A stretch of DNA of 29,776 nt from Candidatus Poribacteria bacterium (GCA_014730235.1 WJIO01000186.1:1-29776), one strand, 5' to 3'; counted from the stretch's first letter, positions 13,633-29,709 are shown. Numbers and translations are program-made. The notes: generated from the letters alone by a model not told the origin.

Positions 13633-13652
13633 ATTCCTAACTTCATAGGAAT
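13633..13652. promoter_or_regulatory. ATTCCT-N8-AGGAAT palindrome (site B) with AGGAATAACA 3' extension, identical in half-sites and spacing to site A
   Basis: The sequence is ATTCCTAACTTCATAGGAAT. It lies about 200 bp upstream of cinA. Confidence 0.45.
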
Positions 13653-13850
13653 AACAGTATATAGAAATCTCTTGTGATTACCAAAATTAATTCTGAATAT
13701 CCAAAAAATTTTGAAGAAAATTTGTTGATCAAAACCTCACAAAATCACTTATAAAAGCAGAATTTAGAAAGCCTTTTCTTAAAATTCCCTTTAGTTACTA
13801 TACTTTCACAGTTTTAAAACTATTTATAATGTAATTCAGGAAAAGATTAA

Positions 13851-15092
13851 ATGCGCGGTGAACTTATTTTTGTAGGAACTGAGTTGCTCCTAGGGCAGAT
13901 AGTAAATACCAACGCCGCATATCTTGGTGAAAATCTGGCCAGGTTGGGCGTTGATCTTTATTACAGTAGTGTTATCGGGGATAATCTGGAACGTATTAAG
14001 AATACTACACAGACAGCTTTAAGCAGATCTGAATTGGTTATAATTACCGGCGGATTGGGACCGACATTTGACGATATAACCCGAGAGGGCATCGCTACGG
14101 CCATAAACCGAGAGCTTGTATATGATCCTGAGGTTATGGCCCAGATAGAAGCCCATTTTAACCGGGTTAAATATAATATACTCCCTATGCACCGACGACA
14201 GGCCTATGTATTTAAAACCGGTTGTCAGGTTGTTCCAAATCCTGTTGGTTCTGCCCCTGGACTTATAATCGAAGTAGATGGCAAGTGGATTATTGCTATG
14301 CCAGGAGTTCCCAGGGAAATGGAGCGGATGTGCAACGATACCATATTTCCCTGGATAACGAAAAGGGCCGGCAAGGGAATTATCAAATCAAGGGTGCTTA
14401 AAGTATGTGGAATGGGTGAATCCACAGTGGCCGATGCACTGAATGAAATAGTAGAACCCCTGACAAATCCCACTATTGCATTTTTAGCCCGACCTAACGA
14501 AGTATCCGTAAGAATAACGGCCAAAGCTAACGATAGCGATGAAGCAGACAGGATGATAGCTGTTGTCGCCGATCAGATAAGAACTAAGCTGGAGGATAAT
14601 GTTTTTAGTGAAGACAACCAGACAATGGAAGAGGTTATCGGATGCCTGCTGGTTAAAAATTTAGAAACCCTCGCCATTGCAGAATCCTGTACCGGCGGTT
14701 TAGTTTCTGACCGAATAACTGACATATCCGGTAGTTCCAGATACTTTCAGGGTTCTGTAATAGCTTATAGCAACAATGTAAAGTCTCAGCTTCTTAATGT
14801 TTCAGAAAGCGATCTAGAACAATACGGTGCAGTAAGTTCAACAGTTGCTTTACAGATGGCTAAGGGTGTCAGGAAACTATTGAATACAGATTACGGTCTG
14901 GGAATAACGGGTATTGCAGGACCGACTGGCGAAACTCCTGACAAACCTGTGGGTCTTGTATATATTGCTGTTGCATCAGATAAAAGGAATAATGCAAGGG
15001 AATTCAGGTTTCTTGGTGAGAGAACAACTATAAAGCGCAGGGCATCTCAGATGGCCCTGGATATGCTGAGAAGAGAACTGCTGATTAAGTGA
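13851..15092 (+). CDS. cinA: CinA-family protein (competence/damage-inducible; NMN amidohydrolase PncC-type C-terminal domain)
   Basis: 413 aa. The MoCF-type N-domain MRGELIFVGTELLLGQIVNTNAAYLG plus the CinA C-domain. Confidence 0.9.
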   Translation: MRGELIFVGTELLLGQIVNTNAAYLGENLARLGVDLYYSSVIGDNLERIKNTTQTALSRSELVIITGGLGPTFDDITREGIATAINRELVYDPEVMAQIEAHFNRVKYNILPMHRRQAYVFKTGCQVVPNPVGSAPGLIIEVDGKWIIAMPGVPREMERMCNDTIFPWITKRAGKGIIKSRVLKVCGMGESTVADALNEIVEPLTNPTIAFLARPNEVSVRITAKANDSDEADRMIAVVADQIRTKLEDNVFSEDNQTMEEVIGCLLVKNLETLAIAESCTGGLVSDRITDISGSSRYFQGSVIAYSNNVKSQLLNVSESDLEQYGAVSSTVALQMAKGVRKLLNTDYGLGITGIAGPTGETPDKPVGLVYIAVASDKRNNAREFRFLGERTTIKRRASQMALDMLRRELLIK

Positions 15093-15105
15093 AAAGGATT
15101 GTAAT

Positions 15106-16461
15106 ATGCTATTGATTGGATGTCTTACTGTGTTTGTAAGTTCTATGACGGGCAGTATATCGGATGAAAACATATTTGAATTGGGCATGTGTACCCACTT
15201 CAGTCAGGGAAAAGGGATCGTTGAATCAAATATTTACAGCATGAAAATGGCCGGAATTAGCTCTATCCGGGATGAATCCACATGGAAAGATGTGGAAAGG
15301 ACAAAAGACGTTCTTGAAATATCCGAGAGGATTGATAGATATATTGACCATGCCAATAAAGAGGGCATTGGGGTTATGATGATCCTTGATTATTCCAACC
15401 CTTTTTATGATGATGGTGACAGGCCAAAATCTCCAGAAGCTGTGGAAGGTTTTTGTCGATATTCAGAACATATAGTTAAACATTTTGGGGATAAAATCAA
15501 ATGGTATGAAATCTGGAATGAATGGGATATTCCCATTGGACTTCCACCAAAGCACCAGGAAAAGAACGGTGAACGAAACAGGGGTAAAGCGGAGGATTAT
15601 TTTAACCTTTTAAAAGCTGTATATCCAAGAATCAAGTCTGCCAATCCCGATGCAATAGTTCTGGGCGGATGTCCCACACCCGGAGCCGTCAGAAACGGAT
15701 GGCTTGAAAAGATTATGAAGTTGGGTGCAGTGGATTACTGCGATGCCATATCCATCCATACATATAACTACAGCGCAAAGGGCTTTGACAGGACGCCGGA
15801 AGCGTGGCAGGCATGGATGCTGGAAGTTCAGGCCATGCTACGTAAATATAATAACGATAATGATCCTGATTTTTACGTTACTGAAATGGGCTGGCCGACT
15901 CATGTGGACGAGAGGGGAACATCACCTGAGCTTTCCGCGTCATATTTGGCAAGACTTTATCTCCTGGCCCGGACAATGCCATCTTTTGAGGGCTTATGGT
16001 GGTATGATTTCCAGGATGATGGCTGGAAAGCTGAATATAACGAAAACAACTTTGGAATCATACGTCCTGATTTGACTCCCAAACCGGCTTATTATGTAAC
16101 ATGGGATATATCAGAACTGGTTAAACATGGTGAATATCTAGGCAGAATGAAGACTTCCGACGAGAATCTCTGGTTGCTGCAATTCAAGCTTGATGGTGAT
16201 AATATATGGGCTGTATGGTCAGGGGACGACCAGGAGCGACAGGTTATTTTTGAGACTAAAGATACGGGGATAGATCTGTCGGTTTTGCAAACAGGCCATA
16301 AGCATATGGATATGAAATGGGGCCACAGGGATTGGGTAGATAATAGAGGTCAGCCTTTGATGAAATCCCGGATGTCACTAACTGTTGGACATCGACCTTA
16401 TATTCTGAAAGGTGGATTGGGTAATATATCTGTAGTAGATATTATCCCGCGACCGAGATGA
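15106..16461 (+). CDS. Clan GH-A (TIM-barrel) glycoside hydrolase, GH5/GH39-like, with an N-terminal signal-like segment
   Basis: 451 aa. Strand-4 acid/base motif is WYEIWNEWD, and the strand-7 nucleophile context is YVTEMGWPT. The N-terminus is MLLIGCLTVFVSS. The family cannot be fixed by eye. Confidence 0.55.
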   Translation: MLLIGCLTVFVSSMTGSISDENIFELGMCTHFSQGKGIVESNIYSMKMAGISSIRDESTWKDVERTKDVLEISERIDRYIDHANKEGIGVMMILDYSNPFYDDGDRPKSPEAVEGFCRYSEHIVKHFGDKIKWYEIWNEWDIPIGLPPKHQEKNGERNRGKAEDYFNLLKAVYPRIKSANPDAIVLGGCPTPGAVRNGWLEKIMKLGAVDYCDAISIHTYNYSAKGFDRTPEAWQAWMLEVQAMLRKYNNDNDPDFYVTEMGWPTHVDERGTSPELSASYLARLYLLARTMPSFEGLWWYDFQDDGWKAEYNENNFGIIRPDLTPKPAYYVTWDISELVKHGEYLGRMKTSDENLWLLQFKLDGDNIWAVWSGDDQERQVIFETKDTGIDLSVLQTGHKHMDMKWGHRDWVDNRGQPLMKSRMSLTVGHRPYILKGGLGNISVVDIIPRPR

Positions 16462-17042
16462 AAAATAAGAAAAAAGAAACTATTAGAACATTTATTGCTA
16501 TAAAACTCCCAGAAAATATTCACAAGGTACTAAAACAACTTCAGGATGAGCTAAAAGAATCTATGCCTGATGTCAGATGGACTAAGTATGGAAATATTCA
16601 TTTGACACTTAAGTTTCTAGGTGATACCCCTGTTTCACAGGTGGATTTTATCGATGAGAAACTCAGGGAAATATCTGGTAAATTTTCATCTTTTAATATG
16701 ATTCTTGAAGGTGTTGGGGCCTTTCCAAATTCCCGTAAACCAAGAATAATATGGGCCGGGATAAATACAACGGATGAAACACTGGAAAATCTTGCAAAGC
16801 AAATAGAAAAAGAAATGGATAAGATAGGATTTCCAAAGGAAAAACGGAAATTCAAGCCGCACCTGACTATCGGCAGGATCAGAAAACTGAATAATCCAAC
16901 TGTAATGTCTAAAGTACTGGAAAATATTCAAATAAGGAAAATTGGTGAATTTACTGTTGAATCGGTTAGTTTTATTGAGAGTCAGCTTGATCCCGGTGGT
17001 TCTATATATACTACTTTATGTGATGCACCACTAAGCATTTAA
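16458..17042 (+). CDS. thpR: RNA 2',3'-cyclic phosphodiesterase (2H family, LigT/ThpR)
   Basis: 194 aa. The two H-x-T-x motifs are HLTLKFLG and HLTIGRI. It has an ATGA overlap with the GH gene. Confidence 0.85.
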   Translation: MKNKKKETIRTFIAIKLPENIHKVLKQLQDELKESMPDVRWTKYGNIHLTLKFLGDTPVSQVDFIDEKLREISGKFSSFNMILEGVGAFPNSRKPRIIWAGINTTDETLENLAKQIEKEMDKIGFPKEKRKFKPHLTIGRIRKLNNPTVMSKVLENIQIRKIGEFTVESVSFIESQLDPGGSIYTTLCDAPLSI

Positions 17043-17047
17043 AAGAT

Positions 17048-17081
17048 AACGGGGTTTTGAGTTTAACTCAAAACCCCGTTA
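17048..17081. terminator. Bidirectional intrinsic terminator between convergent thpR (+) and the cdc48-like gene (-)
   Basis: AACGGGGTTTTGAG-TTTA-ACTCAAAACCCCGTT: a perfect 13-14 bp stem with A/T-rich flanks on both sides. Confidence 0.8.
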
Positions 17082-17106: not shown

Positions 17107-19245
17107 TTATCTCTCTATGGCTTTCATTGCAGCCTGGAAGTGTTCCATATTAATCTTTATCTGTGTATAATCTTTCTCCTGTTCATCTTTGCTTTTCTGG
17201 ATAAATTCCCGGATGGCTATCATTGCCGCCCGTCTGCATACAAATTCTATATCAGCACCTACCCGGTCATCTGTCATTTTAGCCAACTCATCATAATTAA
17301 TGTCATCAGCCAGTGGTTTTTCCCTTGTATGAACTTTGAATATCTCCAAACGGGTTTTTTCGTCAGGTTTTGGCATCTCCATAACCAGATCGAGACGTCC
17401 AGGTCTTAAGAGGGCTTCATCAATGAGATCACGACGGTTAGTGGCTGCAAGCACCACAACACCCCGAAGTTCCTCGATGCCGTCCATCTCAGTTAAAAGC
17501 TGGCTTATTACACGTTCTGAGACATGGGAATCGGATGCTCCGGAACGCGGTGGAGCGATGGCGTCCAGTTCATCCAGAAATAATACGCAGGGGCTGGATT
17601 GTCTTGCTTTCTGGAAAACCTCTCTTATTCCTTTTTCAGATTCGCCGACCCACTTTGAGATTAACTCAGGTCCTTTGATTGATATGAAATTTGCTTGACT
17701 CTCGGTGGCAACTGCCTTGGCCAGCAGTGTTTTTCCTGTTCCCGGCGCGCCGTGAATTAAAACACCTTTTGTTGGTGATATGTTGGCATATTTGAATGCA
17801 TCCGCGTATTTCATAGGCCATTCGACAGCTTCCTGGAGTTCCTGCTTGATCTCCTCAAGGCCACCCACATCCTCCCAATGCACATTGGGTACTTCGGTAA
17901 ATACTTCCCTGATGCCCGATGGTTCTATTTCGTTGAGGGCATCCATGAAATTATCCATGGTAACGTTAAGATCATTCAGAATTTCATAAGGGATGGAATC
18001 TATATCAAAATCTATTTTAGGGATAATTGTTCTAAGGGCTGTCATAGCTGCTTCCCGACTTAAAGCCTCTAAATCTGCTCCTGTATAACCATGAGTTATC
18101 TCAGCCATTTTATCCAGGTCAATATCATCAAACAAAGGCATTCCACGTGTGTGAATTTCCAGGATTTGTAATCTAGCCGGGGCATCGGGTATACCAATAA
18201 CGATCTCCCGGTCAAAGCGTCCTGGGCGGCGCAGGGCTGGATCAATCATGTTAGGTAGATTTGTTGCTCCAACTACTACAATCTGTCCCCGGTCTTTCAG
18301 ACCGTCCAGAAGGGCCAAAAGCTGTGCTACAACGCGTTTTTCTACATCTCCTACTACTTTTTCCCGCTTTGGAGCTATGGAATCTATTTCATCCAGAAAT
18401 ATAATGCTGGGTGCTTTTTGCTTTGCCTGTTCAAATATTTCCCTTAGCTGTCTTTCACTCTCACCATAAAACTTATGTATTACCTCTGGGCCACTTATAG
18501 AAAAGAAAGCTGCATCAGTTTCGTTAGCCACAGCCCGGGCTAGCAGTGTTTTACCACATCCGGGAGGTCCATGAAGCAAAACACCCTTGGGCGGCTCAAT
18601 CCCTAATTTCTGGAACAACTGGGGATGCCTTAAAGGTAATTCTATCATCTCCCGAACTCTTTGTATGGCTTTATCCAAACCACCAATGTCTTCATATGCA
18701 ATACCAGCTTTATTTTGTCCTCCTTCTCTTTGACCTTCTATATTAATTCTTGTATCAGGATGAATAAGGACTATATCATCAGGGGATGTTTTTGACACAA
18801 TAAATTCCTGGAACCTGGAACCAAAGAGGGTGGCTCTGACTACATCACCGGATACTACAGGTAAATCATTAAGTAGTTTGCCCACATATTTTGTGTCCCG
18901 TTGTTGTGAAAAACGGGTTTTCCCGGAAGCCTGAGTGAGATATATTAGCTTTGCTGGTTGGGCTGAAACTGGAGACAGTTTGACCTTTTCACCGATTCCT
19001 GTATCGGCATTACGACGGGTAAGGCCGTCAATCTGAATGATTTCTTTACCTCGATCATCAGGATACGCAGGCATTACCTTAGCGACTGTCATTCGTTTAC
19101 CCCGAATACTGATAATATCCCCTACAGAAACGTCAAGTTTTTTCATATCTTCGGGATCCATCCGGGCAAGACCTTTACCTGCATCCCGATTTAATCCTTC
19201 TGATACTTTAAGATTAATCGTATTTGGCTCTGTTCCTGCACCCAT
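17107..19245 (-). CDS. Cdc48/VAT/p97-type double-ring AAA+ ATPase (N-domain + D1 + D2), last gene of the gvp-linked operon
   Basis: 712 aa. The Cdc48-N domain is [41 protein letters not shown]1 Walker A is [20 protein letters not shown] with DEID Walker B. D2 Walker A is [20 protein letters not shown] with DELD Walker B. Both SRH regions are present. It is TAAATG-coupled to the upstream 189-aa ORF. The SD is AGGAG. Confidence 0.9.
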
Positions 19246-19815
19246 TTAATGATTCTCCTTTAGATTTTTTACCGATTTATAGATCTTGATGTCGTCAACC
19301 AATTTATCAGTCACTTTATGAAGAGCTCCCATAAACAAAAGGCCAGTTTCACCATCCTTCAGAGTCGAGTCAATCCTACAGGCTATATATTCATCCCGGC
19401 GTTTCATCAGATCGTCGTATTTGTTTGTTGAACCAACTACTCCCATGTTCTTAAGTCTTTCCCTTTCCTCTAGCAGTAGCTCTGATGCTTCTGTTCCAAC
19501 TATTGATGCTCCTTTTTGGATTAACTCCAGCAGTAGCTTATAATTTCTGTTGCCATCTTCTGCAAGGGCCTGGACTATTTTAAGTTCCTGATTACATACA
19601 GGTAGACTGTCCTGATAGATTTTTGCTTTTTTGTAATTAATAGGTAAATTGAGCAGTGTATTCCTGATTTCTGTCCAGAAATTTTCAACAGCCTTTATAT
19701 GTTCTTCCCATTTAGATTCACCATATCTAGCTGTGTATTGTTTTCTGGCTTCGGATAAATGGTTTCCCAGGTCTTCAGGTGTATGAACAATAGGTATATA
19801 AAGCAATTCTCGCAT
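19246..19815 (-). CDS. Hypothetical 189-aa protein between the last gvpF/L and cdc48-like. It is translationally coupled on both sides, with no family recognised.
   Basis: The start is 2 nt after the gvpF/L stop and is preceded by GGAG. The stop abuts the cdc48 ATG. The protein is predicted alpha-helical and soluble (MRELLYIPIVHTPEDLGNHLSEARKQYTARYGESKWEEHIKAVENFWTEI...). Confidence 0.5.
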   Translation of the reverse strand: MRELLYIPIVHTPEDLGNHLSEARKQYTARYGESKWEEHIKAVENFWTEIRNTLLNLPINYKKAKIYQDSLPVCNQELKIVQALAEDGNRNYKLLLELIQKGASIVGTEASELLLEERERLKNMGVVGSTNKYDDLMKRRDEYIACRIDSTLKDGETGLLFMGALHKVTDKLVDDIKIYKSVKNLKENH

Positions 19816-19817
19816 TT

Positions 19818-20537
19818 TTACTCCAAGCCTTTCCAGAGATTTATATTTGCAAAAGTATAAGGAGGCCAGGGGCCTGAATAAAGCAAACGCAGGTCTGGAT
19901 TATTATTCCTGAACTGCTGGTAAGAGTATTTAAAGGATTCCAATTGATCCTGTTCGATCAGATAGCATATATTCCTGATAAGCATCCTTTTTATAATTTT
20001 AACGCTGGAGATAACTTCAGAACTATGGGGAATAAGGATTTTATCCAGCTTCTGTTTCAAATCTCCCGATATATCCTTTAATTTTTTTATATTGTCGTGT
20101 TTACGTTTTTTATTCATCAGGTAATTCATGCCATTTTGAATTTTTACTTCTTTATTATCTCTGGATTTTATATCTATGTTTTTAATATCAAATAAAATCT
20201 TTATACTGATTTCTGCTTTACCCTCAAGTTTTGACAGGTATTCATTCAGTATTTTCATATTTTCTTTTAAAAATATTATTATATCCTCAATATCCGGGAA
20301 AAAGGTGGCAAAGCGACATGGTATTATAGATTGAGATTGCTTAAAAATAATATCCACAACTTTCTGATGATTAATAACGTTGGTATTGTTAGCATCCAAA
20401 CTGCGAGAATCAATTTCACTAAAGAAAACCGATATATCACCCAAAGTTACAATTCGGATTCTTGAGTTGCAAATACCCGTAGATAGATCTTTTGGCATTA
20501 TTGTATTATTTTTGGTTAAACAATAAACATATTTCAA
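19818..20537 (-). CDS. gvpF: GvpL/GvpF-family gas vesicle protein (paralogue 4)
   Basis: 239 aa. N-terminus is MKYVYCLTKNN. The C-terminal family signature is LLYSGPWPPYTFANINL. Confidence 0.8.
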   Translation of the reverse strand: MKYVYCLTKNNTIMPKDLSTGICNSRIRIVTLGDISVFFSEIDSRSLDANNTNVINHQKVVDIIFKQSQSIIPCRFATFFPDIEDIIIFLKENMKILNEYLSKLEGKAEISIKILFDIKNIDIKSRDNKEVKIQNGMNYLMNKKRKHDNIKKLKDISGDLKQKLDKILIPHSSEVISSVKIIKRMLIRNICYLIEQDQLESFKYSYQQFRNNNPDLRLLYSGPWPPYTFANINLWKGLE

Positions 20538-20542
20538 GATTT

Positions 20543-21379
20543 TTATTCTTCTTTAAAAACATTGAATTCAGGACAGAAATTATAACACGGCCAAGGACCA
20601 CTTAACTCGAATAATATAAGGCTTGGTTTATGTCTAAGGGCAAGTTTATCCAAGTTTTTTTTGAAATTATCAAAAGATTTCTTATCAATCAAAAAAGCAG
20701 AATTAAGTATCATATCCATATTTTTTCCCGTTGCATTTCTGCCAAGAAGTTTATTTCTACATCCTGCTATGCACCAGGATGATATAGTCTTATATATTGA
20801 ATTAGAAAGATTTTTCAGGTAATTGGTGCGGAATTTGCTGATTAAGCTCTCCCGCTTTTTTTTCAATAGATATGCTTTGCCCGGTGGCATATGGGCAATA
20901 CGTTTATCCAGATCCACAATTTCTTTGCTTGATTTAGCTATTTCCTCTGAACCAGCGTCATTTTCAGCATATACCTTTATTCCCCATTCCTCTTTTCCAT
21001 CAACAACGTCAAAATAATCATTAAATTCCTTGAATCCCTTAACCAGTATATCAATGATTTTCTTGCTATCAGAATAGATAGTGCCAAAACGCATAGGGAT
21101 AATACTGTGATTCTCCATTGCTGTTCTTATTATTTTTTCATGGGTTCTTACTCTTGGAGTTAACCACTCAATGTTCTGAAGGGATTTTTCCAGTGCGTCT
21201 TCGTTATATTTATCTCTGGAAACTGAACTTACCAGAGCACCGAGGTTTTGGTGAGATAAAAAAAAGGTTTTATTTTGCCTATCTATTCCTGGATTTGATT
21301 CTATATCCGGTATACCCCTGAAAATACAATAAAGGTAAAAATTATTATTCTGGTCTAATCCTGATTCTTCTGCTTCCAC
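20543..21379 (-). CDS. gvpL: GvpL/GvpF-family gas vesicle protein (paralogue 3)
   Basis: 278 aa. Contains FYLYCIFRG and the C-terminal ELSGPWPCYNFCPE signature. Confidence 0.8.
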   Translation of the reverse strand: MEAEESGLDQNNNFYLYCIFRGIPDIESNPGIDRQNKTFFLSHQNLGALVSSVSRDKYNEDALEKSLQNIEWLTPRVRTHEKIIRTAMENHSIIPMRFGTIYSDSKKIIDILVKGFKEFNDYFDVVDGKEEWGIKVYAENDAGSEEIAKSSKEIVDLDKRIAHMPPGKAYLLKKKRESLISKFRTNYLKNLSNSIYKTISSWCIAGCRNKLLGRNATGKNMDMILNSAFLIDKKSFDNFKKNLDKLALRHKPSLILFELSGPWPCYNFCPEFNVFKEE

Positions 21380-21888
21380 AATTTAATCTCCACTATACCA
21401 TTTCTGTTTGAGTATTTAGTTTTTTCTTCATCAACAGGAGCGGAAAGTAGTATTTCCTTGTAATATTTTCGCTCTTTTTTTTCACCTGATAGTATAAGTA
21501 TATCTCCTTTAATTTCGTATTTTATTTCAGTTTCTGATACTCCAGGCATTTCAGCGATTACCAGTATATAATCACCTTCATCAAAAATATCCACCATAGG
21601 TTCCCGAATTTCATCAACTATCGGTCCTTGTTTTTTTTCTTTAACATTACCAAATTGTTGAACAGTAGCTTTTCCACCAGTTCCAAATTTCACAGAAACG
21701 CCGTATACGGCTTTCAAGTCTTTATCATCACCGATTACCCCTTCTTTTTTTATACTTTCGGATTTTTCGGCTAATTCACTTGCCAGATCGATCAGGGAAC
21801 CAAGACCTTTAAACAAACCTCCTAATCCTATATCAATATTTATGTTGCCTTTGACGTTATCCTTTTTATCATCTTTACCCATTACCAA
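21355..21888 (-). CDS. gvpH: Hsp20/alpha-crystallin-domain protein (GvpH-like)
   Basis: 177 aa. The ACD-like core is VDIFDEGDYILVIAEMPGVSETEIKYEIKGDILILSGEKK...NGIVEIKLWK. The N-terminal region is glycine/lysine-rich. It overlaps the downstream gvpF/L by 25 nt. The SD is GGAGG. Confidence 0.7.
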   Translation of the reverse strand: MVMGKDDKKDNVKGNINIDIGLGGLFKGLGSLIDLASELAEKSESIKKEGVIGDDKDLKAVYGVSVKFGTGGKATVQQFGNVKEKKQGPIVDEIREPMVDIFDEGDYILVIAEMPGVSETEIKYEIKGDILILSGEKKERKYYKEILLSAPVDEEKTKYSNRNGIVEIKLWKQKNQD

Positions 21889-21931
21889 TAACCTCCATCT
21901 TCAGTTTTACTGAATTATATATAATAATAGC

Positions 21932-21950
21932 GCCCCGCATATAGCGGGGC
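21932..21950 (-). terminator. GC-rich hairpin followed by a U/A-rich tract on the minus-strand transcript, between gvpJ and gvpH. Candidate terminator or attenuator.
   Basis: GCCCCGC-ATATA-GCGGGGC, a 7-bp all-GC stem. Downstream on the minus strand is GCUAUUAUUAUAUAUAAUU, which also holds a TATAAT -10-like element for gvpH. Confidence 0.4.
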
Positions 21951-22008
21951 TTAAGCACGCGTTACACAATTTTTAGGAGAGAGACATGCAAAGCGTGCTG
22001 ACGATTGC

Positions 22009-22347
22009 TTAACTGGTTTTTTCTAATTCAGATATACGTTTTTTAAGAGCTTCTATTTCAGCTTCTTTATCTTCAAGTTGGTGTGCTTTTACTTCTTGTT
22101 CCAACCTTTGTTTGCGTTCCGCCATAGCACTTAAAAACGGATTACCTTCCCACCAATCTATACCCATCTCTTTGGCCCTTTCCACTGATGCCAGAAGCAA
22201 TCTAATATTGATTGTCAAAAGCTCAACTTCCAGAAGCTTAATACGGATATCGCCAGCAATAACAACGCCCTTATCCAATACTCTCTCAAGGATTTCCACC
22301 AGGTTATTTGCGTTGGTGGAATGAACAATTTGTTCTTGGTGTCCCAC
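22009..22347 (-). CDS. gvpJ: GvpJ (GvpA-family gas vesicle protein with extended coiled-coil C-terminus)
   Basis: 112 aa. The core LVEILERVLDKGVVIAGDIRIKLLEVELLTINIRLLLASVERAKEMGIDWW matches the GvpA/J/M fold. Confidence 0.85.
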   Translation of the reverse strand: MGHQEQIVHSTNANNLVEILERVLDKGVVIAGDIRIKLLEVELLTINIRLLLASVERAKEMGIDWWEGNPFLSAMAERKQRLEQEVKAHQLEDKEAEIEALKKRISELEKTS

Positions 22348-22361
22348 AGACCCATTCCCCT

Positions 22362-22691
22362 CTAATCAAGTAAATTTCCTAAAGGTCCTAAATCAATGTT
22401 TAGCTCTTCTATTTCAAAATATTCTTTCAACTCAATAATTTTTTCCTCTAACTTCATAAGAGTAGTACCGAGTCGCTCAATTTCTTCATCAGTTAGAGTT
22501 CCGCCTTCTATTCTTCTAATAGCCTGTTTTTCCAGCAACTGCCTGATAAGCTCTACCAGAGCCAGAACCAACTTTACAAGTCCTTGTTCTACTCCCTCTG
22601 GATCTACCTTCACCTTTGTAGGCTTTTTAACTGGTTCAAGGTTATTCGCAAAATCATCCAGGAATTTTGATGTTATCTCAGGTCGATTCAC
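22362..22691 (-). CDS. gvpK: GvpK gas vesicle protein
   Basis: 109 aa. LVKLVLALVELIRQLLEKQAIRRIEGGTLTDEEIERLGTTLMKLEEKIIELKEYF matches the conserved GvpK core. Confidence 0.85.
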   Translation of the reverse strand: MNRPEITSKFLDDFANNLEPVKKPTKVKVDPEGVEQGLVKLVLALVELIRQLLEKQAIRRIEGGTLTDEEIERLGTTLMKLEEKIIELKEYFEIEELNIDLGPLGNLLD

Positions 22692-22911
22692 TGATTATTT
22701 CCTCATCCATTGCTTCAATAAGTGTTTCAACAGAACTTACCAGAACACTCAGACCTATATACAGAAGTTCCACACCAGCGACAGATATGCAAATTTCTCC
22801 AGTTAATACAGCCCCTTTATTTAATACGCGATCCAGAAGTTCACACAAAGAAATCCTTTGTTCCAATGATATATCATCATTATCATCTGGAAATTCATTA
22901 ATGATGTCCAT
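22678..22911 (-). CDS. gvpM: GvpA-family minor paralogue (GvpM/GvpS-like)
   Basis: 77 aa. The GvpA-like core is LCELLDRVLNKGAVLTGEICISVAGVELLYIGLSVLVSSVETL. The N-terminus is acidic. Confidence 0.75.
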   Translation of the reverse strand: MDIINEFPDDNDDISLEQRISLCELLDRVLNKGAVLTGEICISVAGVELLYIGLSVLVSSVETLIEAMDEEIISEST

Positions 22912-22930
22912 ATATTACCTCAAGCTTTAA

Positions 22931-23242
22931 TTACTCAACAATTTCCTCAAGATCCATTCTTTTACGCATGCTGCGGCGTTCATAATTAATAACATCACCA
23001 TCTTCGTCAAGTTCAACTTCGTATATACCCAATACATCCAGTGTATCAGGTATTGCTTTTCTCTCTATAAATTCAATGGTGATATTCCAACCATCTTCAG
23101 TTCTTGATGCTCCAACCACACTTGAAAGCTCCAATCCTATTAGCATTTGGAGTTGTTCAACAGCGTTGTTTATTGCATCCTTCAGTTTTAGACGAACCGT
23201 TTTATTCTCATGTAAGGTATTTATTTCTTCAATCTCAGCCAT
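22931..23242 (-). CDS. gvpO: GvpO-like gas vesicle synthesis protein
   Basis: 103 aa. Size, position and the ...LSSVVGASRTEDGWNITIEFIERKAIPDTLDVLGIYEVELDEDGDVINYER pattern resemble GvpO (PF05800). The call rests on recall, not a search. Confidence 0.55.
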   Translation of the reverse strand: MAEIEEINTLHENKTVRLKLKDAINNAVEQLQMLIGLELSSVVGASRTEDGWNITIEFIERKAIPDTLDVLGIYEVELDEDGDVINYERRSMRKRMDLEEIVE

Positions 23243-23296
23243 AAATTTCTCCTTGATGATTGTGTTATTTGGACATAGAATATTTTTATTATATCA

Positions 23297-23920
23297 TTAA
23301 TCCGATGACAGATCAATTAACTCCAGTTCTAATTTTTTTCTACCAAAAACCAATGCTTCTTTTACGGTAGGCATGAGTAAATCAATATTTCTACCATTGT
23401 TTTTTTTCATGGCTGATCCTGTATCACATGCAAAAAAGTACCTGTTAATTTCCGGAGCATACAGGACAGAACCATATGGAATAACACCGGGATCAACAGC
23501 AGCAACACCCATACCTGCCGGAATGAGGTTAGATGTCAATCCATCGTTAAATGGAACGCAGCTATCTTTGGGATCATAGGCAGTAACATTAAAATAACCT
23601 AAAGATTTCCGTTTTCCCTTTTTGGATAAAGTAGATATAGCTGCACGATATGCCTTTATTTCACCTTTAAGGAGTGATGATTTTATAGCGTATTCATTTA
23701 TCATCTCTTTTAGTCTTGTATGTTCCTGAGTCATTTGTGTTTGGTAATCATGGCTAACCCGCATGTATGTAAACAGGCATGATAATCCCATTGCGGTAAA
23801 AATAGCAAATGACAATACACCAAAGTAGACAAACAATTTAGCACCTTGTTTCTTAAATATATCTTTTATAAGAGAATAAGCCCTACCTGTATAAGAAGAA
23901 TTACAGGCTAACGTTTCCAT
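23297..23920 (-). CDS. Membrane-anchored 3D-domain protein (MltA/YorM-like double-psi beta-barrel, probable peptidoglycan-binding or lytic domain) embedded in the gvp operon
   Basis: 207 aa. One N-terminal TM segment (LFVYFGVLSFAIFTAMGLSCLF) and a coiled linker precede the 3D domain TAYDPKDSCVPFNDGLTSN...GVAAVDPGVIPYGSVLY...FACDTGSAMKKNNGRNIDLLMPT, which carries the conserved Asp residues. Confidence 0.6.
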   Translation of the reverse strand: METLACNSSYTGRAYSLIKDIFKKQGAKLFVYFGVLSFAIFTAMGLSCLFTYMRVSHDYQTQMTQEHTRLKEMINEYAIKSSLLKGEIKAYRAAISTLSKKGKRKSLGYFNVTAYDPKDSCVPFNDGLTSNLIPAGMGVAAVDPGVIPYGSVLYAPEINRYFFACDTGSAMKKNNGRNIDLLMPTVKEALVFGRKKLELELIDLSSD

Positions 23921-23924
23921 CGCC

Positions 23925-24161
23925 TTAACCTCCGCCTTTTTGAGCAGCTATCTCTTCCAAAATATCCACAAGCTCTTCTTCTTTTTCTTCAAATTCCTCT
24001 TCGCTGATTTCACCTTTTTCCAATTGTAAATAAAGATTTCTTAAATCTTCTCTTATCTTATCTTCATTAAAAAGCTCTTCTTTTGCCATTTCGTCAATTT
24101 TCTTAGCTATAAATACCGGTAATTTTATTGGTGCCAGTAAAATATTATCAAGAATACCCAT
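23925..24161 (-). CDS. gvpG: GvpG gas vesicle protein
   Basis: 78 aa. MGILDNILLAPIKLPVFIAKKIDEMAKEELFNEDKIREDLRNLYLQLEKGEISEEEFEEKEEEL matches the GvpG pattern (MFLLDDLL...A...ELYD...I...L..L...E.GEISE.E). Confidence 0.7.
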   Translation of the reverse strand: MGILDNILLAPIKLPVFIAKKIDEMAKEELFNEDKIREDLRNLYLQLEKGEISEEEFEEKEEELVDILEEIAAQKGGG

Positions 24162-24166
24162 GACTA

Positions 24167-24952
24167 CTACCTTTCGAGATGCAATTCCAGTCTGTCAACA
24201 AAACTGAATGGAGGCCAGGGACCGTCAAGTTTGAGGGAATACTCATTTCCCATATTTTCGCCTAGTCTATCAATGGCCTTTTCCAGATCAGAACGCATGT
24301 CTTTTTCAATTAGCAAAGTTGCATTAGTTATTGTTGAATCATTGTTTATTTCTTCAACCCGGGCTTCTCCCGGAGGAAGATGGGTTAAAATATCATTGGT
24401 TATCTGTTCTCTGGTTTTTTCCATTCTCTTGTGGAAATAAGTACCAAAATCAATAATTTCCTTACGTCCCAGGGATTTACCCTCGCCCATGTATTTATCC
24501 CGAATGGATCTGAGTTTATCATCCCTGTCAATGAAATACTTAAACACATCATCAACATTCCATTCAACCTTTAATCCCATTTCAACTTTGTTCTTAAGTC
24601 TTTCAAGCTCCTGTCGAATAGTTTGGTAACTTTTACGCAGAGCAATATTAACCTCACCTGCATCTCTAGCTATCTGACCGAATCTGGCAGGAATTGTGGT
24701 AAAAAGCTCTGATGCCTTGCGTATCACTTCATGGTATGGAGCCAGATTTTTCCTGAGAAGTTTAATGGAATCAACACGAGGATAATCACTTACCAGAGCA
24801 CCAATATCTTCATAATGAATGCTATGGACAACTTTATTATCCAGACCTATAGGACCGAAGTTACTTTCCTGATCTGAAAGAATAACAGCGTAAAACAATT
24901 TTCCATAATGGGAGCTTCCGTTATTTACTTTTCTTGTAACTCGCTTTCTCAT
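24167..24952 (-). CDS. gvpF: GvpL/GvpF-family gas vesicle protein (paralogue 2)
   Basis: 261 aa. The C-terminal signature is [13 protein letters not shown]. It has a 4-nt ATGA overlap with the upstream gene. Confidence 0.8.
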
Positions 24953-25986
24953 CGGATCAATAACCTCTCTGCAATAAAAACTTTTTCAACTTCATCTCTT
25001 GAGAACGAAAAAACAGCATTTTTTCCATCTTCAAGAGAACTGCTATAACTATGACAATATGACTCTAAAATTTTATAGGCTTCGTCTATTTCTTTAAAAA
25101 GCTTATATGATTCCTTGTCTCCATCCGTTTTGTCAGGATGGTATTTCAACGCAAGTCTTCGATAGGATGCCTTAATATCATCCAGATGTGCTTTTTCCGG
25201 GAGTTCCAGCCTTCTACGGGCTTTATCAATTAATTCATAATTGCCTTTTTTGAATTCAAGTGGTGCAAAACTATAGGGAGGAATTGGGCCAATATATTTA
25301 AAACTGAGGTAAGATTCATTTTCATTACCAAGTTCCTCCATAGCCTTATCGAATTCTGCTTCATCCTGTCTATTGATGAGATAGCTCCTGTTAAAAATAA
25401 TTGAGTCATCGGCTGATCTACCTTCTGATGAATCAATAGATACATTGGATAATTTGTCGTGAATAGAATCAATAATCTGGCGTTTTAGTTTTTCTGCTGA
25501 CTGGAACAGTAGTTTACCAAGCTGAATTTTATCATTAATGTCAATAGATTTCACAGCCTCTTTAAGCCAGTTTTCATCTTTACTTATATTCTGTAAAACT
25601 GTATCCAGATCCCAGAAAAGCTGAACTGCAAATTCAGCTTTATTGCGAAGGTTATTCAGTGCCCATTTAATATGTATGTAGGAATTGGCCATGAATTCCT
25701 CAACCTGTTCTTCCTGATCCACCATAATTCCAAATCTAAGCGGGAGTATAGTGAGGTTTTGGAATATATTTATATTTATCTGTTGGTAAGATGCAAGAAG
25801 GACTTTAAGTTCAGCTTCATGCATTCCGGGCTGTTCAGCAATAGCAGGATCTATTTTTCTGGTGATAGTTGTAAGATCTTTATAATTTATGCTATGTATC
25901 GTCTCAGGAATGGAAATATATTCATTTTCAAATTTGGTAGTTTCAACGATACAATGAAGCAAGAATGTATTTAATTTTTCTGTCAT
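24949..25986 (-). CDS. GvpL/GvpF-family protein fused to a C-terminal DnaJ J-domain (paralogue 1)
   Basis: 345 aa. The GvpF/L core ends at the signature [16 protein letters not shown] canonical J-domain follows: [59 protein letters not shown], with the HPD tripeptide present. Confidence 0.8.
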
Positions 25987-26132
25987 AATAGGTTAACCTT
26001 TCCAGCAAATTTACAGATCAGTATTTAATTGTAAACTACTATAATTATATATAAAAGGGTGTGACATACTTACGTCACTTTAGTCCTGGTATTTTGTATT
26101 TTGAAATTTAGTCGGGTAAATACAAAAGATTC

Positions 26133-26153
26133 GGGCACGAAAATTTCGTGCCC
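26133..26153. other. Strong perfect hairpin (GGGCACGAAA-A-TTTCGTGCCC) in the gvp internal intergenic region. Possible minus-strand terminator for the gvpC-N-orf107-orf94 unit, or a protein-binding site.
   Basis: Seen directly. On the minus strand it is followed by GAAUCUUUUGUAUUU. Confidence 0.35.
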
Positions 26154-26220
26154 ATTAAAAATGATTGCTTTTGTTAACCTATTTTGTTATGAAATCGCTA
26201 AAAATAAAGATATGTTTACT

Positions 26221-26432
26221 GTAATCGTTAAAAAATGAAAAATGTATTTAGAAAATACTTTTATGATGATGGTAAATTACAAAATTTGTCATTCCTGCGA
26301 AACTCTTATTCCTTTTTACTCAAGCCTTTTCAAAAAGCTTGAAGCAGGAGTCCAGAAAAAACTTATCCAGAAAGACCGGATTCCTGCTTTTGCAGGATGA
26401 CATCATGAATGATATTCATTTCTAACGATTAC
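26221..26432. repeat. ~212-bp element, copy 2 of the TIR-bounded element. It has outer inverted arms GTAATCGTTAAAAAATG / TAACGATTAC and inner inverted arms GTCATTCCTGC / GCAGGATGAC, and includes an ATTCCT-N8-AGGAT palindrome (26380-26399).
   Basis: The outer arms at 26221-26237 and 26423-26432 are 10/10 reverse-complementary, extended to about 19/23. The inner arms are at 26288-26298 and 26392-26401. The left arm plus the GTCATTCCTGC spacing (about 55 bp) parallels copy 1 at 10089-10166. Confidence 0.6.
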
Positions 26433-26434
26433 TG

Positions 26435-26719
26435 TTACTGTTTTAAGATTATTAGTTTTCTATTCCCAATTGTATTTGTAAACCTGACATTTACAACATC
26501 ATTGGGTTTTAGATCCATAAATGACAGCAAGTTATCTGGAATAACAAGTCTATTTGATGAATCCAAACGGGCTAATCCTCTTATAATACCTATAGACCTT
26601 GAAATATTACCATTCAGTTTATGATGACGATTATTAAAACACCTTATATACCTGAAATGTTTTATTTTGCCCGATGTTTTTATATTTCGTCTTGTTTTAA
26701 GTTTAATAATATTTCGCAT
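26435..26719 (-). CDS. Small protein with a C-terminal AbrB/MazE/SpoVT-like swapped-hairpin DNA-binding domain. The start codon is uncertain.
   Basis: The C-terminal 50 aa SIGIIRGLARLDSSNRLVIPDNLLSFMDLKPNDVVNVRFTNTIGNRKLIILKQ aligns by eye to the AbrB N-domain (GIVRKVDELGRVVIPIELRRTLGIAEKDALEIYVDDEKIILKK). The basic N-terminal 40 aa may be a mis-called extension. There are 3 nt between the upstream ORF stop and its start. Confidence 0.45.
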   Translation of the reverse strand: MRNIIKLKTRRNIKTSGKIKHFRYIRCFNNRHHKLNGNISRSIGIIRGLARLDSSNRLVIPDNLLSFMDLKPNDVVNVRFTNTIGNRKLIILKQ

Positions 26720-26722
26720 AGC

Positions 26723-27046
26723 TTAATATTTTAAAATAACCTCAGCCTTTTTTTCTGATTCATTATCTTTTGCGTTTTGATTTTGTTTATTTATTTTTTC
26801 TCGAACGCCCAGTCTCTCCATAAGTTCATTTTCTTCCTCATCAATTTCTTCCAGGCGTTTTGAGATCCTGTCTATTCTTTTTTCCCAGTTATTTTTTTCC
26901 TTGTTTAGTCTCTGTCTTTCACGACCAAGACCAGCCAGTTCGTTGTAAATATCATATTCATCATAGTGATTCCGCATCCGCAAAGCAGTTTTAATGCGTT
27001 TTGTGGTATTAGGAATATCTCTTATTCCTCTTATTCTTCTTTCCAT
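26723..27046 (-). CDS. Hypothetical 107-aa charged coiled-coil protein downstream of gvpN
   Basis: The ORF has operon context only. Its sequence is MERRIRGIRDIPNTTKRIKTALRMRNHYDEYDIYNELAGLGRERQRLNKEKNNWEKRIDRISKRLEEIDEEENELMERLG... I recognise no family. Confidence 0.4.
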   Translation of the reverse strand: MERRIRGIRDIPNTTKRIKTALRMRNHYDEYDIYNELAGLGRERQRLNKEKNNWEKRIDRISKRLEEIDEEENELMERLGVREKINKQNQNAKDNESEKKAEVILKY

Positions 27047-27171
27047 AACTATCTTCGGCGATTAATTATCCCTGAATTCTTTGAAATCCTGGGTAGGAAT
27101 AGCCGTCATCCCCCTTTCAAGAATATAATGAGTATTTTTGATAAAATGTCGAAGCCTTAAACTACCGGGAA

Positions 27172-28053
27172 TTATCCAATTATATTTTCAATTGCTTTCT
27201 TTACCTGACCACTGGTATCTGAACCTTTACATATAACATCCAGACATGTTTCAATGAAAACCCTATCATCAGTTTTCACTTTGACTTCCTGCTTATTAAC
27301 AATATCGGCAATCATGATTGATGCTCTGATAGTGGGGTCAAAACTTATATCCTGGTTTTCCCTTATATGCCTGACAAGTTCCACTATTTTATTTGATTCT
27401 TTTTCAGGCATACCTGATTTTGCCGATGTAATAGCAGCTTCAGTTTGGGCATCATAACATCCCAGGTTAATGGTAATCATTCTATCCAGTAAAGCGCTCT
27501 GAGGAGTATAAACCCCCGCATATTCATCAGGATTACTGGTGAATATAGCCCGGAATTCCGAATGAATATTGATGTAACTTTCACCGTATCTGCTTTCCGG
27601 TAATACCAGGAGTCTTTCTTCCAAAGCCGACAAAAGAACATTGTTAGCTTCTGCCCTAGAACGGGAAAATTCATCATAAACGAGTGTATATCCATTTTTG
27701 CATGCTGTGGTTAGTCTTTGATCAACCCAGACATTGGATACATTTTCCTCAGTTTTTACAACAGAATGAACAAAGTTGTCCACCAGACGTTTTGAAACAA
27801 TACCCTTATCATTACCCAGTAGATCTGAAGAACCAAATTCTTCATCGCCATATATAATCATCACCGGGCGACCAATTACACCAGCCAGGTGCATAGCTAA
27901 AGTGGTTTTACCCGTCCCTGCAGGGCCGCTAAGATGGACAGGGTAACCAGCTTTTAGATATGCCAAACAGCGCCGACATATACTCTTTATTAACGGAGTA
28001 ACAACGAAATCCTTTCCCGGTTCAAGACGAAGAACAGTCGCCTGTTGTGCCAT
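27172..28053 (-). CDS. gvpN: GvpN (MoxR/CbbQ/NirQ-type AAA+ ATPase of gas vesicle clusters)
   Basis: 293 aa. Walker A is VHLSGPAGTGKTTLAMHLAG and Walker B is LVYDEFSRS. It follows the gvpC-like gene. Confidence 0.9.
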   Translation of the reverse strand: MAQQATVLRLEPGKDFVVTPLIKSICRRCLAYLKAGYPVHLSGPAGTGKTTLAMHLAGVIGRPVMIIYGDEEFGSSDLLGNDKGIVSKRLVDNFVHSVVKTEENVSNVWVDQRLTTACKNGYTLVYDEFSRSRAEANNVLLSALEERLLVLPESRYGESYINIHSEFRAIFTSNPDEYAGVYTPQSALLDRMITINLGCYDAQTEAAITSAKSGMPEKESNKIVELVRHIRENQDISFDPTIRASIMIADIVNKQEVKVKTDDRVFIETCLDVICKGSDTSGQVKKAIENIIG

Positions 28054-28081
28054 ATTAATTCCCCTCGAATATTATTTCTGA

Positions 28082-29242
28082 TTAACTCTTTGGATAATAA
28101 AGATTATCAATTTTTTCGACTTTATTTTCATCAACTAAAGGTTTTATAACAGATATAAGGCCTCTCCAATCAACACCCATTTCATTTCCAATATCAACCA
28201 GCTTAATGCCTTCAGGATGTTTACCAATCATTTCCAGAACCTGATCTTCTGTGGAAATATTTTCTTCCTCTTCTTTTTCAGGTGAAGCTTCTTCAGAAGT
28301 CGGTTCTTCGACTTCATCCTGCGGGGTTTCAGGAGAAGGTTCCTCATCCTCATATTCTTCCTCTTCCGATTCAGTTTTTGAAGGTGGTTCTTCAACTTCA
28401 TCATCTTCGGAGGAATCTTCCTGATCTAAAGCCTCTTCGATAACGGTAGTTGTTTCCGTCGTTTCTACCACAGAGGAAAACAATTCTATCCATATATCCC
28501 TTGCTTCTTTTCTGTCAGAAGCTATGCTATTTAGCATTTCATTTATGGCTTTGCTTCGGGCTTCTTCATCAGCAGAAACCTTTTCTCTCAGATTCTTGGA
28601 CATTTCCTGAATATCAGATCTGACACCTTTCATGAATGAATCAACCTCATCTATGAGGCTTTTGGCAGCTTCTTTTCGGGCTTTCTCATCTGAGGCCATC
28701 TTTTCCTGTAAGGCCCTGGATGTCTCTGCCATTTCCGATTTCATATCATCCATAAAGGATTTTACCTCATCCCTGAGCTGATTAACTGCATCGCTTCTTT
28801 GTTTTCTATCGGAAGCAATTTTTTCTTCCAGGGATTTGGACATTTGCTGTAGATCTGATTTTATACTTTCTTTGAAGTTTTTAACTTCGTCCATCAACTG
28901 TTTTGTTGCCTCACTTCGGGCAGCTTTATCGCTGGCCATTTTATCCTGAAGTTCTTTTGACATATCCTGAAGGTCATTTCTGACTTCATCCAGGAATACC
29001 TTAACGTTATCCATAAGCTCTTTTGAAGCCTTCATACGACTTGCTTTATCTTCGGATATCTTATCAGCCAGAGCTTTGGACATATCCTGACGCTCTAATT
29101 GGAAACGTTCTATGAGGTTATGAGTATCAGATTTCATCTCACTGACTTTGACGTGACGATCCTCGGTGGAGGCCCTACGGTTTTCAGCAGATGCTTTTAT
29201 ATCCTCTACCAGATTCCGCATTCCATTACTCAATTCACCCAT
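28082..29242 (-). CDS. gvpC: GvpC-like repetitive gas-vesicle surface (scaffold) protein candidate: about 6 tandem 40-41-aa amphipathic repeats, an acidic E/D/S/P-rich linker and a ~55-aa C-terminal globular tail
   Basis: 386 aa. Repeats such as DMSKELQDKMASDKAARSEATKQLMDEVKNFKESIKSDLQ, QMSKSLEEKIASDRKQRSDAVNQLRDEVKSFMDDMKSEMAE and TSRALQEKMASDEKARKEAAKSLIDEVDSFMKGVRSDIQE have the same period. Its position between gvpA and gvpN matches the canonical gvpA-gvpC-gvpN order. Confidence 0.6.
   Translation of the reverse strand: MGELSNGMRNLVEDIKASAENRRASTEDRHVKVSEMKSDTHNLIERFQLERQDMSKALADKISEDKASRMKASKELMDNVKVFLDEVRNDLQDMSKELQDKMASDKAARSEATKQLMDEVKNFKESIKSDLQQMSKSLEEKIASDRKQRSDAVNQLRDEVKSFMDDMKSEMAETSRALQEKMASDEKARKEAAKSLIDEVDSFMKGVRSDIQEMSKNLREKVSADEEARSKAINEMLNSIASDRKEARDIWIELFSSVVETTETTTVIEEALDQEDSSEDDEVEEPPSKTESEEEEYEDEEPSPETPQDEVEEPTSEEASPEKEEEENISTEDQVLEMIGKHPEGIKLVDIGNEMGVDWRGLISVIKPLVDENKVEKIDNLYYPKS
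28460..29215. repeat. Intragenic tandem DNA repeats of ~120-123 bp encoding the 40-41-aa GvpC-like repeats
   Basis: Periodicity is seen at the protein level, and at the DNA level as recurring ...GACATnTCCTG...TTTnAnnTCATC... blocks. Confidence 0.65.
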
Positions 29243-29392
29243 GAAAGCAACCTCCTATTATAAAATATTATAAAAAAACACATATTCAGAAAATTATTTA
29301 AAAGGCCAATTATTTATCCGAATATATAGTCAAATTTTAATTTATTAAACCGTTTTAGCTGATTGCTGAATCAGCTTAATGCTTTACTATTA

Positions 29393-29413
29393 AAAATCCC
29401 TCGTTTCGGGATA
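29393..29413 (-). terminator. Weak hairpin plus U-tract ~80 nt downstream of gvpA on the minus-strand transcript. Candidate attenuator between gvpA and gvpC-like.
   Basis: On the minus strand: AUCCC-GAAACGA-GGGAU followed by UUUUUAAU. A second 7-bp hairpin CTTCCGG...CCGGAAG lies just upstream, at 29421-29447 on the plus strand. Confidence 0.3.
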
Positions 29414-29490
29414 TTTGATCTTCCGGATGAAGTCATCACCCGGAAGAATCAAAGGGATCTGACGAATCAGAAGTTTTTTGGTAGGATTAT

Positions 29491-29709
29491 TTATGCAGGA
29501 ACAGCGGCGGTAGCGGTTAGACCAACGGCTTCTGCATATTTCAGGTATGTGTCAACTGAGGCAACTACGACGCGAGCTTCAACAGCCAGTATTTCGATAC
29601 CGACCAATGATACTCTTGCCCAAGCATCTACCACAATACCTTTGTCAAGAATGCGATCTACAACTTCTGCCAAACTACTTGAATCCATTGTCTTCTGTAC
29701 TGAAGCCAT
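29491..29709 (-). CDS. gvpA: GvpA, major gas vesicle structural protein
   Basis: 72 aa. [52 protein letters not shown] is near-identical to the canonical GvpA core. A perfect SD GGAGG (rc of 29719-29723) lies 9 nt upstream of the ATG. Confidence 0.95.

Follow-up and report, generated by a model that had tools for sequence, protein, structure and literature searches.

Does a gas vesicle gene cluster that also encodes chaperones and an unfoldase constitute a new kind of system, and what might the additional proteins do? The question is raised by a 29,776-bp contig of a metagenome-assembled genome (MAG) in NCBI, labelled Candidatus Poribacteria, in which a gas vesicle (gvp) cluster known here from its genes alone occupies 12.6 kb (positions 17107–29709). 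The whole contig is termed the window in what follows. The cluster comprises 18 co-directional open reading frames (ORFs) on the minus strand, all of which are intact. Protein families were assigned using Pfam and NCBIfam profiles, scored against their curated cut-offs. GvpA is accompanied on the same strand by GvpN, GvpF/L, GvpG, GvpK and J/M-type GvpA paralogues, all above the Pfam or TIGR cut-offs, and judged by these assignments the locus is a complete, intact gas vesicle gene cluster. The original prediction, made from the same DNA, had identified it as such, and the profile searches bore out this identity and nearly every gene call. The locus is a further example of a known and widespread cluster type that carries a GvpH–GvpZ–GvpY module, for which the counterparts in the window would be Hsp20, a Cdc48-family ATPase and the protein encoded by orf189. 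It is not a new kind of system.

Conservation of the Hsp20, orf189 and Cdc48 genes

Scanning a single genome for each GTDB species with a sequence pattern gave 365 relatives of orf189, from which the best 80 loci were taken, and the six-frame ORFs of these loci were searched with the proteins of the window. Within 10 kb of the orf189 homologue, Cdc48 is encoded in 61 of the 80 loci, Hsp20 in 62 and core gvp genes in 54; most of the exceptions are contigs that end just after orf189. The phyla represented are Desulfobacterota, Planctomycetota, Verrucomicrobiota, Acidobacteriota, Zixibacteria, Omnitrophica and Bathyarchaeia. One locus (L077) belongs to the cultured, gas-vacuolate Desulforhopalus vacuolatus DSM 9700, and the nearest genome-derived cluster (L008) comes from an Omnitrophica genome. 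A search of 1.84 billion proteins gave 915 representatives of the orf189 family at E ≤ 1e-10.

Homologues of orf189 also sit inside gvp clusters on the metagenomic contigs L001–L007. The gene order of L001 is that of the window, including a GvpF/L protein fused to a J-domain (F/L::J), and in L007 orf189 adjoins Cdc48. Contigs L004 and L005 are archaeal-looking (LSM, Alba, PadR and DUF2080 genes), and carry Hsp20–orf189 together with gvpA, gvpN, gvpO and Cdc48. Starting from Cdc48, the same cluster was found in a Rhodoferax MAG (L094) and on contig L095, and in RefSeq the gvp cluster of a Methylosinus sp. C49 plasmid closes with genes annotated as gvpH, hypothetical protein and ‘CDC48 family AAA ATPase’. 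These comparisons show that orf189, Hsp20 and Cdc48 form a conserved module, linked to gvp genes in bacteria and on archaeal-looking contigs alike.

The original prediction had regarded the chaperone and unfoldase set as atypical and as absent from described clusters, including those of Serratia and haloarchaea. This is countered by the presence of the trio in most of the 80 loci. Nor do described clusters lack Hsp20, since in haloarchaea and in Serratia the Hsp20-like GvpH already has a name as a cluster component (PMC9501494, PMC4982088), and gvp clusters combining Hsp20 with four or five F/L paralogues have been on record since 2010 (PMC2963123). The comparison of gene neighbourhoods proposed with the prediction revealed a conserved, widespread module, and the 3D-domain protein as a local insertion. 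In the literature searched there is no paper that ties CDC48, an unfoldase, a J-domain, DnaJ or an AAA ATPase to gvp clusters; the matches to CDC48 derive from haloarchaeal transcriptomics or from a contaminant of affinity purification.

Some loci are rearranged or carry further genes. In L004/L005 the segments gvpA...gvpN–gvpO–Cdc48 and Hsp20–orf189 are separated by an IS66 transposase. A two-domain ArsA-type ATPase (L095, 19286–21235) lies in the same gvp cluster as Cdc48 and Hsp20, so that the ATPase additions are not mutually exclusive. Plasmid pOA238_160 of Octadecabacter arcticus 238, a species with known gas vesicles, has a lone orf189 homologue between IS5 and IS6 transposases (L088, 14974–15591), with no gvp gene within 15 kb.

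In the window, the genes from Hsp20 to Cdc48 are packed tightly, with spacings of −25 to +5 nt, and the stop codon of orf189 directly abuts the start codon of Cdc48. From this close spacing, the terminator located past Cdc48, and the hairpins and promoter-like sites elsewhere in the cluster, the locus is read as two transcription units, running from gvpA to orf94 and from F/L::J to Cdc48. The first unit would comprise gvpA, a GvpC analogue with 40-aa repeats, gvpN, the gvpV-like orf107 and an AbrB-like gene. The second would contain F/L::J, a second F/L gene, gvpG, the 3D gene, gvpO, gvpM-like, gvpK, gvpJ-like, Hsp20 (GvpH), two more F/L genes, orf189 (GvpY) and Cdc48 (GvpZ). The gap rich in inverted repeats between the units, and the hairpin upstream of Hsp20, had both been predicted and are real. 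Matches to a sigma54 promoter are no more frequent in the window than expected by chance.

The Cdc48 protein has Walker A and B motifs in both of its rings (residues 226, 281, 499 and 554), and aromatic pore loops in D1 (KFYGESE at 258) and D2 (KWVGESE at 531). The pore loops are kept in all 41 of the gvp-linked Cdc48 homologues that could be scored. The closest structure in the PDB is that of Thermoplasma VAT (5g4f, 745 bits); an archaeal origin of the module is a conjecture. The HbYX motif, by which ATPases dock onto the archaeal-type 20S proteasome, is absent from the C-terminus of the window protein (which ends ...AAMKAIER) and from every bacterial gvp-linked copy checked. The Cdc48 of L004/L005 is the sole copy with a tyrosine-containing tail (...KPYG). 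The gvp-linked Cdc48 ORFs of L067 and L017 are extended, to 898 and 794 aa respectively compared with ∼710 aa.

A fold search places the product of orf189 with the TraB/PrgY/GumN proteins of the Tiki superfamily, whose hallmark is a pair of GxxH motifs together with a conserved glutamate and arginine. Twenty of 29 relatives of orf189 match the corresponding Pfam family (PF01963) at E ≤ 0.01, the best at 2.8e-7. Invariant in the family are a C-terminal G163-x-x-H166, E156, R140 and H11. A profile search of the PDB sequences with orf189 returned chance matches only.

The remaining chaperone-like proteins are the Hsp20 and the F/L::J fusion. Hsp20 scores just below both curated cut-offs, with a strong E-value to the archaeal Hsp20 profile (2.6e-40). 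The fusion had been thought unusual. Among the 80 genome loci 12 have it too, as do two metagenomic contigs (L001 being one), with the HPD motif retained in all 14 fusion ORFs; no description of it was found in the searched literature.

Relationship to the Serratia cluster

The commonest gene order among the orf189 loci is orf189, an NtrC-type sigma54 activator, Hsp20, Cdc48, F/L, F/L, a PAS histidine kinase and a receiver. This layout is that of the Serratia cluster. The corresponding elements linked in the window are Hsp20, the Cdc48-family ATPase, two F/L genes and the orf189-family gene. In Serratia GvpV, GvpY and GvpZ have been described as proteins of unknown function (PMC4982088, PMC10344784). 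The published primers for their in-frame deletion (PMC4982088, supplementary Table S3) were translated, and the resulting peptides were checked in 7,912 six-frame ORFs.

Primer gvpZ_3F encodes V-R-W-E-D-V-(G). The peptide VRWEDVG occurs in 9 of the 7,912 ORFs, each of them a Cdc48 homologue linked to gvp genes; the counterpart of the peptide in the window is VHWEDVGG, at the start of D2. In the gvpZ deletion, the primers fuse codon 4 to the VRWEDVGG motif. Translated as its reverse complement, gvpY_5R gives L-I-H-F-P-I, and the pattern L[IVFL][HY][IFV]PI is found in 55 of the ORFs, all of the orf189 family and with an N-terminal location in the copies listed. Translation of primer gvpV_3F gives L-R-I-K-Y and then a stop codon. 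With a gvp-linked Cdc48 from a gammaproteobacterium as the query, a protein search returned close relatives from MAGs only, and no Serratia entry.

The window has a small ORF adjoining gvpN (orf107) that ends ...VILKY. The small ORF right after gvpN has a C-terminal tyrosine in 12 of 21 loci, compared with 74 of 3504 background ORFs (∼2%), which suggests that a GvpV family might be defined by this residue. A hydrophobic-x-Tyr C-terminus is seen in the post-gvpN ORF of the window, L001, L008, L013, L017, L019, L049, L062, L063, L069, L080 and L081.

As the primer-encoded peptides are family-specific within this set of ORFs, we infer that GvpZ of Serratia belongs to the Cdc48 family, GvpY to the orf189 family and GvpV to that of orf107. 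If these equivalences are correct, the published Serratia phenotypes then apply. GvpV, like GvpN, is required for the growth of bicones into cylinders (PMC4982088). The genes gvpH, gvpY and gvpZ are dispensable for vesicles in Serratia (PMC4982088, PMC10344784), and their deletion lowers or abolishes the signal in Escherichia coli (PMC10344784).

Function of the module

GvpF binds GvpA, and GvpH prevents the aggregation of GvpM (PMC9501494). GvpA causes proteotoxicity when it aggregates, and assembly factors that are expressed beforehand relieve the aggregation (PMC12848028). The function that we consider rather probable for the module is dedicated quality control of the hydrophobic, aggregation-prone shell proteins GvpA, GvpJ and GvpM. 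The F/L::J protein would act as a client-specific co-chaperone, in which a GvpA-binding F/L scaffold passes its clients to the host Hsp70 (DnaK) via the J-domain, and Hsp20 would serve as a holdase for unassembled subunits. The VAT-like Cdc48 hexamer, with its aromatic pore loops and no proteasome-docking tail, may thread, unfold or extract Gvp proteins that are mis-assembled or aggregated. The TraB/Tiki-fold GvpY-like protein could be its partner, as a hydrolase or an adaptor. Such a module would be auxiliary, raising yield and lowering toxicity without being essential.

Enzymes of the Cdc48 family act as segregases, extracting subunits from assemblies that are stable. On this established activity is based the main rival, that the Cdc48/orf189 pair mainly dismantles, extracting GvpA from collapsed or unwanted vesicles for recycling of the shell or to lower buoyancy, rather than acting during assembly. 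The pore loops intact in both rings, the pairing of an unfoldase with a protein of a hydrolase fold, and the dispensability of the genes for vesicle formation in Serratia (PMC4982088, PMC10344784) are all consistent with it. We nevertheless regard it as fairly unlikely, since loss of gvpZ or gvpY lowers the vesicle signal in E. coli (PMC10344784), indicating a positive role in formation, and the module shares an operon with assembly factors. Two other explanations are less likely. Cdc48, with or without orf189, might remove or remodel a transcription factor of the cluster, by analogy with the haloarchaeal GvpD that lowers GvpE. A sigma54 activator does lie between orf189 and Hsp20–Cdc48 in 58 of the 80 loci, and haloarchaeal clusters use the NTPase GvpD for post-translational control (PMC9501494). 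But the window and L089 keep orf189 and Cdc48 in the absence of either a sigma54 activator or a kinase, the constant partner is Hsp20, a holdase for aggregation-prone clients, and the regulators in Serratia are GvrA, GvrB and GvrC, not GvpZ (PMC4982088); a regulatory role is thus improbable. Finally, the three genes could be general stress genes that are merely located beside a gvp cluster that is itself possibly silent or a relic, given that several organisms bearing gvp genes make no vesicles in culture (PMC9501494, PMC10344784). This is highly improbable in view of the linkage maintained across many phyla and archaeal-looking contigs despite shuffling of gene order, the tight gene gaps with a single terminator past Cdc48, and the intact state of all 18 ORFs with conserved catalytic motifs.

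A number of points weigh against the assignment of quality control to the module. The action of Cdc48 on Gvp proteins is a prediction, and its substrates might instead be regulators. The activities of the proteins in the source organism, a MAG, are predictions from sequence. The equivalences with GvpZ, GvpY and GvpV rest on primer-encoded peptides of 6–7 residues together with gene position, and the gvpZ mutant in the literature, should GvpZ be a two-ring Cdc48, would keep the D2 ring in frame and so may not be a true null. The orf189 protein itself scores 17 bits against PF01963, under the gathering threshold of 26.8, and its N-terminal histidine is not preceded by the glycine of the canonical GxxH. 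The fold class to which it is assigned spans esterases, proteases or heme binders.

A more specific proposal can be formulated, that GvpZ and GvpY are an unrecognized unfoldase–hydrolase pair of bacteria and archaea, which with GvpH and the Hsp70-recruiting F/L::J would extract, unfold and clear or recycle amyloid-like GvpA. We think this quite unlikely as it stands. If true, it would amount to an organelle-specific proteostasis network, and would provide prokaryotic Cdc48 with a proteasome-independent partner.

Engineering of gas vesicles as acoustic reporter genes is under way. Aggregation and toxicity of GvpA restrict their expression in heterologous hosts (PMC12848028), and most native gvp clusters fail in E. 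coli (PMC10344784). The present analysis offers family assignments for three genes of ‘unknown function’ in the best-performing Serratia/bARGSer cluster, together with a testable proteostasis hypothesis. GvpZ would be a VAT-like Cdc48 unfoldase, GvpY a TraB/Tiki-fold protein and GvpV a small protein, conserved as a partner of GvpN, that ends in tyrosine. The module genes and the F/L::J fusion suggest hypotheses on how shell proteins might be kept competent for assembly, and are candidate parts when clusters are transplanted. The window adds a further example of the cluster type, in this case from a low-GC lineage that is uncultured.

Other genes of the locus and comparison with known systems

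The features of the cluster are listed in Table 1.

Table 1. Genes and sequence signals of the gas vesicle cluster, in order of position in the window. Scores are given against the curated cut-off where both are available.
Feature	Position	Strand	Evidence
Strong intrinsic terminator closing the cluster	17047..17081	-	16-bp stem and T-rich tail, 26 nt past the Cdc48 stop codon
Cdc48/VAT-type double-ring AAA+ unfoldase, putative GvpZ family	17107..19245	-	TIGR01243 969 versus 803 bits; CDC48_N, CDC48_2, two AAA
orf189, short TraB/PrgY/GumN (Tiki/ChaN/EreA superfamily) protein, putative GvpY family	19246..19815	-	Fold search
GvpF/L paralogue 4	19818..20537	-	PF06386 133.8 bits
GvpF/L paralogue 3	20543..21379	-	PF06386 179.7 bits
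Hsp20, GvpH equivalent	21355..21888	-	NF041800 E 2.6e-40, 137.7 versus 140 bits; PF00011 20.0 versus 20.8 bits
GC-rich hairpin between gvpJ-like gene and Hsp20	21932..21950	-	Seven G-C pairs, weak T tail
GvpA-family paralogue, GvpJ-like, 112 aa	22009..22347	-	PF00741 56.7 bits
gvpK	22362..22691	-	PF05121 110.9 bits
GvpA-family paralogue, GvpM/J-like, 77 aa	22678..22911	-	PF00741 61.8 bits
gvpO	22931..23242	-	PF05800 87.7 bits
Membrane-anchored 3D-domain (MltA/Rpf-type) protein	23297..23920	-	PF06725 39.9 versus 23.8 bits; transmembrane segment ∼aa 29-50 (hydropathy peak)
gvpG	23925..24161	-	PF05120 66 bits
GvpF/L paralogue 2	24167..24952	-	PF06386 149.7 bits
GvpF/L with C-terminal J-domain	24949..25986	-	PF06386 134.7 bits; PF00226 56.1 versus 27.8 bits; HPD at aa 283
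Inter-operon gap, 448 bp	25987..26434	-	Three terminator-like hairpins and several promoter-like sites
orf94, possible SpoVT/AbrB-type regulator	26435..26719	-	Relatives only, below threshold
orf107, GvpV-family small coiled-coil protein (predicted)	26723..27046	-	Adjoins gvpN; C-terminus ...VILKY; relatives in L001, L008, L062
gvpN, AAA+ ATPase	27172..28053	-	TIGR02640 345 versus 267 bits
GvpC analogue, 386 aa	28082..29242	-	Five 40-aa amphipathic repeats (aa 53-252), acidic linker, 55-aa C-terminal domain
Hairpin just 3′ of gvpA	29396..29412	-	Terminator-like site, possible attenuator
gvpA, major shell protein, 72 aa	29491..29709	-	PF00741 55 bits; NF006874 134.7 versus 100 bits

The protein encoded after gvpA had been called gvpC-like. 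It has no match to a GvpC family in Pfam or NCBIfam, and homology to GvpC is not upheld; the 40-aa repeats and the location following gvpA make it a positional and architectural analogue. The repeats give peaks at lags of 40 and 80 in a BLOSUM autocorrelation. They are undetected by TRF at the DNA level, and are visible at the protein level only. Relatives of the protein directly follow gvpA in L001, L008, L011, L044, L059, L060 and L075. The protein closes with a compact 55-aa domain (28082–28250) that has no Pfam match and follows a ∼49% acidic linker. The GvpC of haloarchaea likewise closes with a separate globular domain.

The product of orf94, whose true start is probably internal, had been labelled AbrB-like. 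It matches no Pfam family, MazE_antitoxin (PF04014) included. Its relatives in L001 and L008 approach the MazE/AbrB model with 23.4 and 18.7 bits respectively, both under the cut-off of 24.7, and this is as far as the earlier label is sustained.

The genes for the nearest homologues of the 3D-domain protein (L090, L093 and L091, with 53–60% identity) are flanked by phage terminase and portal genes or have unrelated chromosomal surroundings, and the gvp clusters nearest to that of the window, L001 and L008, lack the gene. A role as a conserved gvp component was rejected from the context of these homologues. The gene, which looks like one for a phage-type wall hydrolase, is treated as a putative local, lineage-specific insertion between gvpG and gvpO. 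The gvp clusters of L011 and L012 end with more distant 3D proteins that have a transmembrane segment.

The flanking DNA (1–9000 and 11645–17042) contains genes for polysaccharide export and sugar modification (a MOP flippase, a PseC-like aminotransferase and a Wzc-like tyrosine kinase). The same flanks also encode sulfate adenylyltransferase, and rimO–pgsA–cinA followed by a 194-aa ORF. The flank had been read as rodZ–pgsA–cinA and termed Firmicute-like; pgsA–cinA is confirmed, the preceding gene is rimO, and nothing in the flanks is specifically Firmicute-like.

The individual proteins may be compared with known systems. Like Thermoplasma acidophilum VAT and archaeal Cdc48 (5g4f), the Cdc48 of the window has an N domain, D1 and D2 rings, Walker motifs and aromatic pore loops, the loops being KYYGQSE and KWVGESE in VAT and KFYGESE and KWVGESE in the window. 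It differs from VAT in the absence of HbYX and in being encoded within a bacterial gas vesicle operon. Within the TraB/PrgY/GumN–Tiki–ChaN–EreA–RRSP superfamily the orf189 protein is much shorter (∼190 aa), has an N-terminal motif that lacks the canonical glycine, and is specifically linked to gvp, Hsp20 and Cdc48 genes. In haloarchaeal GvpH and the gvp-associated Hsp20 of Chlorobi, Bacteroidetes and Geobacter (PMC2963123) there is likewise a small heat-shock-type protein among the gvp accessory genes; these are coupled to GvpI or ArsA, whereas Hsp20 in the window is coupled to Cdc48 and orf189. The F/L::J protein resembles class III J-domain proteins in the fusion of a J-domain having an intact HPD to a client-binding module, and differs in that this module is a GvpF/L domain.

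The closest comparison is with the Serratia cluster. This has GvrA, GvrB and GvrC, while no homologue of GvrA (the sigma54 activator), GvrB or GvrC is found in the 29.8-kb window, nor an excess of matches to a sigma54 promoter; homologues of GvrA and of GvrB/GvrC occur in 58 and 40 of the 80 loci respectively. GvpW and GvpX were not detected in the window, unlike Serratia. Common to both are GvpA, a GvpC-type protein, GvpN, GvpV (orf107), F/L paralogues, GvpG, GvpA2/A3-type paralogues and GvpK, and also GvpH (Hsp20), two adjacent F/L genes, GvpY (orf189 family) and GvpZ (Cdc48 family). The J-domain fusion, the lack of GvrABC, the AbrB-like gene, GvpO and the insertion of the 3D gene are particular to the window. 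Compared with Serratia, the window adds GvpO, a J-domain on one F/L protein, the AbrB-like gene and the 3D-domain gene, and its orf189 and Cdc48 genes are adjacent and terminal.

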